64,000 bases of DNA from Schmidtea nova (Eukaryota): NCBI GenBank assembly GCA_044892505.1, contig CM097882.1:376216001-376280000 (forward strand), in the 5' to 3' direction. Positions 56,707 to 59,812 of the stretch are shown here, one piece after another. Position numbers and translations under genes: made by a program. Under the pieces are notes generated by a model, which saw only the letters and a list, made by a program, of their open reading frames with translations, ran no database searches and was not told where the DNA came from. Numbering within the stretch: position 1 is the stretch's first letter; the number at the start of each line of letters is the position of its first letter.

Positions 56707-59700
56707 TTACTCTGGCAACTTGCGTTTCGACGACACTCTGATGTTCTCATCTGGCTCGTCGGTTAATATGACTTTTATGTTTTCTTGGGTGACTTTTGAA
56801 CCATTATGTGCTACTATCTGGCATACGAGTGTTCTAAACCTTTCTTGTGCTGCTTTCTTTTTGTAAACACAGATTTTATATTTCGTTTCTCGTTTTAATC
56901 CATTTATTCGGATTTCTCCTCCTTCTGCTCGTTGACATTTGACTGGATTATCTCCTTTAATTTGCAATTTTACGCTACTCCAACATGCTTCTTCATTATC
57001 TGCTCCTTGTATTAATACTTGTACTGGTTTTCTCTTGTCATCAGCTTCCGTTCCTTTCAATACTGACAGCATCAATATCAGTAATATTATGTCTTTTATT
57101 CGAGTTTTATGTAGACATGCTGTTCGTTTTTCATAATTTGAAGTTTCTTGCTTGGGTTCATCACTTTTGTTCCCAATTTCATCGTTATTGCTTTTTCCAT
57201 CATCTTTCTCGTCTTTGTCATTGTTTCTGTTGATATTTTCATTGTCATCTTTCTTTGTTTTGTTGTTATCATTCTCTTCATCTTCATTGTCAGGGTTATT
57301 GTGATCATCAGAACCACCCTCGGTTTCGTTTAAAATGTCGTCCTCGACATTTATTAGTTTTATTATTTCCTCATATCTTTTAGCTATTTCATCTTCTTCG
57401 GCTTTTATTTTTGCTCTCTTGGTTATCTCATCTTTGGCGTTGTTCCAGCTTCGGTGAATTCTGCTTTCTTTTATATTTTCCTTCCATATGATGACTTACT
57501 GATATAATTCATGTCTTTTGGATCCAATTCTTTCTTTTTCTTTTTTGTTGTTCGTAAACCTAAAATCAGGTCTTTGCAGCAATGCTTTAATCGTTTTATA
57601 CATTTTCCATTTTCTTTTCATGGCTCTTTTCATTATCATATTTTCACCGTCTTCAAATCTGTCATTGACATTTATCACTCCTTCGTGCGTCACTGGATGT
57701 AGCCATTTAATCATTTTGGCTGTTGTTTCATCCGCATCTTTGTTCACTGCATTTACTAATGGATTTGGATCTGAACTGAGCACTTCAATATTCTGTAGCA
57801 TTTGACATAATATATTTGATTATTTGATGGTTATTTGCTTGCACTGCATATGATAACACCGTTTCATTTTTATCATCTCTTTCTTTAAAACTTGATCCGG
57901 TTCTCATCAGTTCTGCTATGAGTTTCTTGGATCCTCCTTTTTTAATTGCTACCATCAAGGGTGTTTGATCTTTCCAGTTTTTCGTGTTGGTATGTTGTTT
58001 ACACTTTTCCATGAGTTTTATGATTTCAAACATTCTCTGTTCATTCCCACTTTTTATTGCGTGGTATAATGGTATCTCATCTTTAAAACTGGTAATTGTA
58101 AATAATATTGGTAATCTTTCTTTTATGGTATTCATCGCTTCTGTCGTTTCATTTCCTTTGGCATATTCCTCAACCATTAGGCTTACTCCTCCTAATATTT
58201 CAAATAGATTTTTACTTTTTGACCATTCTGGCATAATTTCTTTGGTAATCTCAATGATCAATTCCATCTTTTTGCGGTGCTCCATTTTTACATCGTCAAC
58301 TATCTTAGGTTGTTCAGATATTGTTGTTGACTGATTTACTTTTCTGCTCGTAGTTAATATACGATGTAGCCAATCGTCATTTTTATTCTCTCGAAACATA
58401 CATACTTGTCCTTTTCTGGTCATTTCTTGATTTGATTGTTCTGTCGCTGTTTCTCTTGTGCAATTTTCTTCAATTTGGTGTTTCAACTTCATCGTATTCA
58501 AATCAATTACAGATCCTTTTAACAGTTTTGGTATTAAGTCTGTTCCAATAATGCATGATGCACCCAGTTGTTTTATTACTGTCAAATAAGTTGATATTTT
58601 TACATTTCTGTATTCGATGTCTGTCCATATCTTTCCAACGATATTGACAGATTCTTTGCTGCATGTTATTACGTCTACCGATGTTTTCTTGATGCATAAC
58701 CGTAACATTTCTGGTATCATATCGATATCTATTGCTGATATATTTGCGCCAGTATCTATCATCGCGTCAACTTCCACACCATTAACCTCGATGTTAATTG
58801 TAAGTGTTGGTCCAGCTGGAGTTTTCATCATTGCAATTATCGTTGTTTCGGGATTATCTTCACCTCTCGCTTTTCCGGTCAACTCGCTTCCTGAAATTTT
58901 ATCAACAGTTAATTTATTACTTGTTTCGATTTGTATCGGGGTTACACCGATTTCTATATCATCATCCAGTGATTCTCCATCATATTTCAAGTGAAATGGT
59001 AAGTCAAACGGTAATCTCTCTTTTATCTCTTTGATCTTTGTTGTTAATGATACATTCATCTTTATTTCTTCTAGACTCGGAAACTGAATTTTTAATCTGC
59101 ACATCTGTGGATCATCGTTTGTTTGTTCCAGTTGTTTCCATTTTCTCATGATGTCATCAAATTGTGTTGAATACCAAGGGCATAAACGTCTGCATTTCTC
59201 GATTTCTCTCACTATCAATCTCATGTTTGATATATTTGCACTATTTTTTATAATCCATTTTAGTAATTCAGTTGTTGTTTCACATTGTTTTCCTGCACTC
59301 TTGCTTAGGTTACTGATTAATCGTTCGGTCTTTGACGTCTCTGTTTGTCTTGATCTTTCGAGCTTCGCTGATTTCCTTTTTTCTTCCGATTTTTGATTCA
59401 TTTTCGTCATTTCTTCCATGGTAATTGTTAACAATCTTTGTGCCACTTCTTCTAATTTGATTGTCGTAGATTCATCCCATTTCTCGTCCATGCTACATGT
59501 ATCATCATTGCTTCTTCTTTCTCTTCTTTGTCGGTTATATTTCTCCACAAACTTCTTCTTTTCTTCTCCCTCCATATCTTTTACGGAAAATTCATATACA
59601 TTTCCCTTTCTTTCAATTTCAACGTCTGATAATTCGGTTATCATTTCATTTACTTTTCCTTCGATATTCTGTTGCAGTTGCATATTCATTGTTACTACTT

Positions 59701-59812
59701 CTTTTTCTTCTTCCTGTAAATTATCTTCTACATTTGGACTGGTTATTTTCTGCTCTTCTTTTAATAAATTATCTTTTGAGTTTGCACTGGTAACTTTCTG
59801 ATTCTCCTCCAT
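56707..59812 (-). CDS. Multidomain polyprotein (~1,030 aa): charged region, UBL-like, retropepsin, ankyrin repeats, acidic spacer, hydrophobic segment, FN3-like; one frameshift and one stop
   Basis: VNGVEVDAMIDTGANISAI...IIGTDLI; ankyrins IPLYHAIKSGN, KDQTPLMVAI, NETVLSYAVQANN; frameshift near 57800. The 57801 frame runs through a single TAA (57496-57498) into the 57075 ORF (offset 726 = 242 codons). Confidence 0.8.

Follow-up and report, generated by a model that had tools for sequence, protein, structure and literature searches.

A constrained retropepsin polyprotein on an abundant non-autonomous LTR family of Schmidtea nova, probably a deletion derivative of a Burro-type Gypsy polyprotein

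A 64,000-nucleotide stretch of the Schmidtea nova assembly GCA_044892505.1 (contig CM097882.1, forward-strand positions 376,216,001-376,280,000; the window, to whose positions all coordinates refer) carries on its reverse strand an open reading frame (ORF) for a polyprotein with a retroviral-type protease (retropepsin, PR). An earlier sequence-only reading had described a single polyprotein in which an intact DTG protease is not followed by reverse transcriptase (RT) and is set among ubiquitin-like (UBL), ankyrin (ANK) and fibronectin type III (FN3)-like parts. In the window the ORF is split over three frames of 684, 107 and 262 amino acids (aa), stop to stop, by a small deletion near 57,790-57,800 that throws the sequence out of frame and by an in-frame stop codon at 57,496-57,498. 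Both lesions are absent from the 71 other copies of a 72-copy alignment. A DNA search of the same genome with the ORF gave 2,062 candidates; identity was 97-100% in the 40 that were scored. Among the best 30 matching loci, the ORF was one frame of 1,038-1,056 aa in 20, one frame of 953-981 aa in 6, and broken in 4; a single polyprotein is thus confirmed by 26 of the 30, and the alternative of two or three separate genes is ruled out. An assembly artefact is ruled out by the thousands of copies. In unbroken copies the order is ubiquitin-like domain, retropepsin, ankyrins, acidic spacer, signal-like segment and FN3-like stub (Table 1). In a further set of 42 copies, chosen by position and not by similarity (the partial locus L068 was excluded; L063 and L064 are near-identical neighbours), the frame was open from the first methionine to codon 830 in 28 and broken before codon 830 in 14, and the active-site decapeptide containing DTG was invariant in all 42.

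The domains named in the earlier reading were recovered with different kinds of evidence. The protease matched Pfam RVP (E=6e-06) and the ankyrins Ank_2 (E=8e-09), both above cut-off, and no RT follows the protease. The UBL domain was weak in Pfam (PF11976, E=0.004-0.012, below cut-off), but AlphaFold, given the helical module and the UBL in a five-row alignment of natural copies, predicted four helices and a beta-grasp fold (mean predicted local distance difference test, pLDDT, 79.5), and Foldseek matched the UBL model to SUMO1, ISG15, NEDD8 and Rad60-SLD2 with probability 1.00. Sequence searches against solved structures identified neither the helical module nor the UBL, AlphaFold run from the single sequence of an unbroken copy yielded a model too poor to use (pLDDT 37.7), and matches in the ESM Atlas, all below 0.8, were uninformative. 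The FN3-like part, which had no Pfam match within this ORF, was recognised by homology: it aligns to all four cysteine-bearing repeats of the longer helper polyprotein described below (pairwise E 5e-06 to 3e-03), one of which is a Pfam fn3 match above cut-off (28.2 bits), and it amounts here to one truncated repeat. The signal-like segment corresponds to a hydrophobic stretch at the equivalent place in three autonomous families, and the acidic spacer is found in the helper as well. Because the FN3-bearing stub has lost its membrane anchor, is cut shorter in several copies, and lies behind a hydrophobic core that is interrupted by a lysine in 7 of the 42 copies, it appears likely to be decaying. 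Protein database searches returned no full-length homologues: some drew a blank, and the others gave only generic ankyrin proteins or distant Gypsy-type proteases, several of them from env-bearing polyproteins. Database proteins P0008, P0010, P0012, P0016 and P0042 have an in-frame fusion glycoprotein before one to three retropepsin domains, and are env-in-polyprotein Gypsy elements.

The ORF is housed in a long terminal repeat (LTR) element of about 23.7 kb, whose long LTRs with TG...CA ends, 4-bp target-site duplication and tRNA primer site, matching the 3′ end of host tRNA-Pro(TGG), are those expected of the Burro lineage. The LTRs and the target-site duplication rule out a domesticated host gene. 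An ORF and Pfam survey found no gag, RT, RNase H (RH) or integrase (IN) between the LTRs of the window element, and three other loci spanning both LTRs are also without gag and pol, their cargo differing from one to the next. We call this family the satellite. Neither the satellite nor the helper family showed a purine-rich tract ahead of the 3′ LTR. At L039-L043, two satellite copies stand in tandem with a shared middle LTR. At locus L176, tRNA-Pro(TGG) genes are repeated in tandem every 308 bp, and the primer-complementary motif has 899 matches genome-wide. The RING ORF in the leader (61795-62286) is intact in some helpers, whereas others have it shortened or with a frameshift.

The same genome contains a full-length family, helper A, two copies of which were read whole (5,006 aa in one). 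Its polyprotein consists of Retrotrans_gag, CCHC, MATH, a fusion glycoprotein of Monjiviricetes type, PR, RT, RH, IN, ankyrin, fn3 and, at the C-terminus, a hydrophobic segment; frames of at least 4,900 aa contain 81 of the 150 helper matches. Families B and C are likewise autonomous, their ORFs measuring some 5,090 and 5,140 aa. In the sections consulted of a published account, planarian Burro elements are given the same set of domains, PF11976 among them, with env lying between gag and pol (PMC6431247). By this published domain description we classify the helper as a Burro-type Gypsy polyprotein, and the domain set by itself points to a dugesiid planarian as the likely host. The Bcl-2-like or dUTPase-like part described for Burro was not detected in the helper by Pfam.

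Four colinear blocks join the two proteins: satellite aa 54-150 match helper aa 554-650 (45% identity), 165-323 match 1424-1582 (54%), 320-464 match 2742-2886 (64%), and about 460-1003 match the helper region after the integrase (41%). Based on these blocks, the satellite ORF reads as an in-frame internal-deletion derivative of a Burro-type polyprotein. What has been lost in frame is Gag, MATH, env and RT-RH-IN, along with the greater part of the FN3-like membrane module. Some 1,160 aa of the parent, env included, are gone from between the UBL and the protease, and to this deletion the adjacency of these two domains is due. The divergence from helper A is old, with dS of 1.4-1.8 and dN of 0.18-0.42; the PR block is the nearest to the helper (dN 0.18, versus 0.31-0.42 elsewhere). 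At the C-terminus of helper A (L088:3250-5022), a signal-like segment, four cysteine-bearing FN3-like repeats and a transmembrane segment are predicted to form a second type I membrane protein besides env, as they are in families B and C; the parts of the Burro account consulted (PMC6431247) do not mention such a module. A second deletion class (L070, L100 and L123; 3 of 60 junctions) has the shared LTR and leader, followed only by the helper A integrase end, ankyrin and FN3-like tail.

The satellite is the dominant form. Exact junctions of LTR end and primer site numbered 2,011, against 0 in the reversed control; the first 60 led to 43 satellite ORFs, 6 gag-bearing helpers, 3 deleted helpers and 8 others. 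By motif counts there are 1,882 protease sites of satellite type against 253 of helper type, and the helper RT motif occurs at 174 sites. Since the two protease patterns are one base apart, and 1 of 20 satellite-type sites checked was a helper variant (the other 19 were satellites), the figure of about 1,800 satellite copies, roughly 7:1 over the full-length family, is only an estimate. Among these 20 sites, there was no autonomous family more than 90% identical to the satellite ORF.

Satellite and helper A have identical LTR termini, a conserved LTR body and an identical primer-binding site. Families B and C have the same primer site, but were ruled out as helper by the lack of any LTR match. 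All 8 elements compared (4 helpers, 4 satellites) have the same 30 nucleotides immediately before the 3′ LTR. The window LTR is 93% identical to that of one helper and 72% to that of another satellite; in a tree of 10 LTRs, satellites and helpers are interleaved and satellite monophyly is rejected (p-AU 3e-127 in the approximately unbiased, AU, test). LTR pairs differ by 0-0.2% (4 satellites, 3 helpers), meaning that both families inserted recently. These are the sequence features used for the non-autonomous partner of the wheat pair Cereba/Quinta in the consulted parts of PMC11302176. Given the shared LTR ends, the tRNA-Pro primer site and the interleaved LTRs, the satellite is likely cross-mobilised by the full-length helper.

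To evaluate constraint, omega (dN/dS) among the 42 copies was corrected with the mutation spectrum from fourfold sites. It was 0.34 for PR (p=1e-07) and 0.32 for ANK, where variants shared between copies gave 0.13 and had a much higher synonymous share than singletons did (Fisher p=5e-06). Values of 0.52-0.57 were obtained for the N-terminal, helical and UBL parts (UBL 0.57), and of 0.62-0.69, which was not significant, for the signal segment and FN3 stub. We conclude that the protease and ankyrin parts are under purifying selection.

In helper A, a motif of the type I/V-C/A/N-M-hydrophobic recurs at each end of PR and again where RH meets IN and IN meets ANK; family B has it at most of these places, and family C at the two ends of PR. 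Gypsy proteases cut their polyproteins at these boundaries. The satellite retains it before PR and before ANK, and a degenerate one precedes the signal segment. As cleavage-like motifs flank the protease, self-processing of the satellite polyprotein, one of the two functions proposed in the earlier reading, is likely.

Table 1. Features of the window element, with coordinates in the window (aa, amino acids)
Feature	Position	Strand	Remarks
Polyprotein ORF, apparent deletion fusion	56707..59812	-	about 1,035 aa in unbroken copies; window copy broken
N-terminal acidic/helical block	59348..59812	-	matches the helper just past its Gag zinc knuckles
Four-helix module	59105..59347	-	matches the helper together with the UBL
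SUMO/ubiquitin-like beta-grasp domain	58871..59104	-	AlphaFold and Foldseek
Predicted cleavage motif at PR N-terminus	58826..58843	-	equivalent site in helper families A, B and C; putative cleavage
Retropepsin	58448..58831	-	DTG at 58,748-58,756
Predicted cleavage motif opening the ankyrin protein	58394..58408	-	matches the helper integrase/ankyrin boundary motif; putative cleavage
Ankyrin-repeat protein	57357..58393	-	Pfam stretch 57,797-58,069; contains both window lesions
Acidic/Asn-rich spacer	57145..57354	-	
Internal signal-peptide-like segment	57049..57099	-	by eye and homology
Single FN3-like repeat stub	56836..57039	-	helper: four repeats and a transmembrane segment
215-aa accessory ORF	55926..56573	-	open in 29/29 full-length copies; families B and C have homologues after the polyprotein
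RING-zinc finger-MATH (TRAF-like) gene	54427..55809	-	
BIR-RING (IAP-like) gene	53026..54273	-	split by a stop in the window copy; a single frame of 399 aa in L047
Two coiled-coil-like ORFs, by eye	50470..53025	-	first partly homologous to an accessory ORF found in families B and C
Two ORFs, each hydrophobic at the N-terminus and in C-terminal stretches, by eye	48544..50377	-	no Pfam above cut-off
3′ LTR, TG...CA	44757..48219	-	5′ LTR beyond the window at L031:780-4411, 0.17-0.2% diverged
4-bp target-site duplication ATAT	44753..44756	.	repeated beyond the 5′ LTR
Leader common to helper	60500..64000	-	26-nt tandem array 60,537-60,866; RING ORF 61,795-62,286

Downstream of the polyprotein, the 43 satellites differ in content: 26 have the TRAF-like gene, 6 have another ORF of about 480 aa in its stead, 9 lack both, and 2 were without a call. 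Omega was 0.27 for the 215-aa ORF, 0.21 for TRAF and 0.34 for the IAP-like (inhibitor-of-apoptosis-like) gene; the frame was open from the first methionine in 15 of 23 copies for TRAF and in 2 of 5 fully covered copies for IAP. The BIR motif has 945 matches in the genome. Neither of the two fully read helper copies gave a match to the 215-aa ORF, the coiled-coil ORFs, the BIR or the RING and zinc fingers of TRAF. In families B and C, 215-aa-like, TRAF and coiled-coil ORFs recur in an unchanged order, with an identity of 26-39%, from which it seems likely that the satellite kept an ancestral accessory block that helper A lacks. The cargo variant (L062:8594-10000, L065, L067, L106-L108, L035:3-1256), with the ORF of about 480 aa in place of the 215-aa/TRAF/IAP block, encodes a protein whose N-terminus is signal-like and in which no Pfam family reaches the cut-off.

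Other elements lie near these copies. The window contains at 3286-11473 the decayed remains of a separate Gypsy element of ordinary type, which has direct repeats of 231 nt and a gag-like ORF next to it, and at 41694-42752 a 352-aa ORF resembling a fragment of a hAT/SPIN-type transposase; ORF clusters that look of Maverick/Polinton type stand beside several copies (L036, L044, L122, L130). All three were identified by eye.

Taken together, we consider it probable that the ORF is an in-frame deleted Burro-type polyprotein on a non-autonomous LTR family, which is likely copied by the helper, and that its protease was likely kept for cutting its own product. Satellite RNA would be co-packaged in helper particles, and template switching within the shared particles would exchange LTRs, so that co-packaging would account for the LTR swapping. 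A dimer of the protease would cut at the motifs on both its own sides and so set free an N-terminal protein bearing the UBL, the protease itself, an ankyrin protein and a secreted stub that is decaying. These products, together with TRAF and IAP, would be likely to favour survival of the expressing cell, and hence spread of the family.

Several observations weigh against this. The 60-junction sample is limited to the first 30 Mb of contig C1, and the neutral baseline for omega comes from 262 fourfold sites only. The acidic spacer, signal segment and FN3 stub are without clear constraint (omega 0.5-0.7; 2.8 for shared variants of the spacer), and PR variants shared between copies are no more constrained than singletons (Fisher p=0.66). 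The cleavage-type motif is short, was defined post hoc and is present at non-boundary places too, and the scan of family C found none at the RH/IN or IN/ANK boundary. Finally, TRAF and IAP are missing in 15 of 43 satellites, meaning that they are not needed for spread.

Some of these points bear on other explanations. The absence of a shared-versus-singleton contrast in PR, the decaying C-terminal parts and the 14 of 42 copies broken before codon 830 would fit a passive relic, whose selection signal was inherited from an unsampled or extinct autonomous parent or reflects mutation bias. We judge this very improbable: the sampled copies have their in-frame deletion junctions in common, the omega values take the mutation spectrum into account, the synonymous excess among shared ANK variants is strong, the accessory genes are constrained too, and no closer autonomous parent was found among the junction loci and checked sites. 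The protease might instead act mainly in trans on the helper polyprotein, as extra processing or as a defective-interfering-like disturbance, with its own cutting secondary; PR being the block nearest the helper, and the presence of the same cleavage-type motifs on both proteins, speak for it. This too seems unlikely, as the helper has an intact PR of its own in frames that are often long, the satellite has no Gag to bring PR into particles, and the strongest constraint on shared variants falls on ANK.

The place of the UBL upstream of a retroviral-type protease domain, as in Ddi1/DDI2, raises the further possibility of a Ddi1-like protease cleaving ubiquitinated or signalling host proteins. 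The UBL fold is real and adjoins PR, the best solved-structure matches for PR are Ddi1 domains, although weak (E=0.03), and an AU test on a short alignment did not reject joining the satellite PR to host Ddi1 (p=0.128). However, the PR core is 70% identical to that of helper A, 54% to B and 55% to C, versus 18% to the host Ddi1-like protein, and in the protease phylogeny the satellite PR groups with Burro proteases (support 98/98), which bears out the Gypsy-type assignment suggested earlier. PF09668 scored 25.4 bits on it, for a cut-off of 26, and 148 bits on the host Ddi1-like protein. The UBL is internal, separated from PR by a cleavage-type motif, weakly constrained, and adjacent by deletion. 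Nor is this a single-copy host gene, with its 1,882 motif matches and an LTR-element context in 19 of the 20 checked. The Ddi1 analogy is therefore not supported, nothing tested supports the proposal of a protease repurposed against host signalling proteins, and we give this explanation scant credence.

A bolder version of the helper-copied reading, which we advance tentatively and think rather doubtful, is a two-part retroelement. The helper would supply Gag, env and Pol, and the satellite would hold a host-manipulating kit of RING-TRAF, BIR-RING IAP and self-released ankyrin and UBL proteins, lost or never had by the helper lineage; LTRs would be swapped within shared particles, and both partners would gain, as in a multipartite virus.

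Non-autonomous LTR elements usually keep nothing or Gag. LARD, TR-GAG, BARE-2 and Morgane-type elements are LTR-bounded and helper-dependent, and keep no ORF, Gag only, or pol without gag; to our knowledge none is a PR-plus-accessory polyprotein. The satellite has shed all replication and particle genes, yet its protease polyprotein remained open and constrained over a long divergence, and the satellite became the dominant form. About 900 IAP-like copies sit on this dependent family and not on the helper copies examined, which makes the outsourcing of host-protective cargo to a satellite testable. The Burro domains, the parent family and helper/satellite pairs, with coding partners in plants, are already known. 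We found no description of a non-autonomous Burro partner in the literature searched, and none of a protease-plus-cargo Burro satellite in print; the primary Burro papers, supplements and repeat libraries may already list such families.

Burro/GYPSM1 elements are giant Gypsy LTR retrotransposons of planarians, for which UBL PF11976, ankyrin, TRAF-C and BIR have been described (PMC6431247). The helper resembles them in having Gag, CCHC, MATH, UBL, env, PR, RT, RH, IN and ankyrin in one ORF of about 5,000 aa, and the 5,140-aa ORF of family C has the length given there for one Burro-like ORF1. The satellite differs in keeping only a post-Gag fragment, the helical module with UBL, PR, ANK and one FN3-like repeat, without gag, env, RT or IN, and the sections consulted of that account describe no non-autonomous partner. 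The B-IAP of Burro1, with BIR and RING, was reported to protect stem cells from caspase-mediated apoptosis (PMC13465017, citing Lee et al. 2026); the gene found here is likewise a Burro-borne BIR-RING IAP, but it lies on a non-autonomous family, and the two fully read helper copies have no BIR. A parallel in organisation is the wheat pair RLG_Cereba/RLG_Quinta (PMC11302176), whose members likewise agree in primer site and LTR termini and have parts of the LTR conserved, the satellite being a coding element that diverged long ago. Quinta, however, keeps Gag, whereas the satellite of S. nova has dropped it, retains PR together with host-directed cargo, and is more numerous than its helper.
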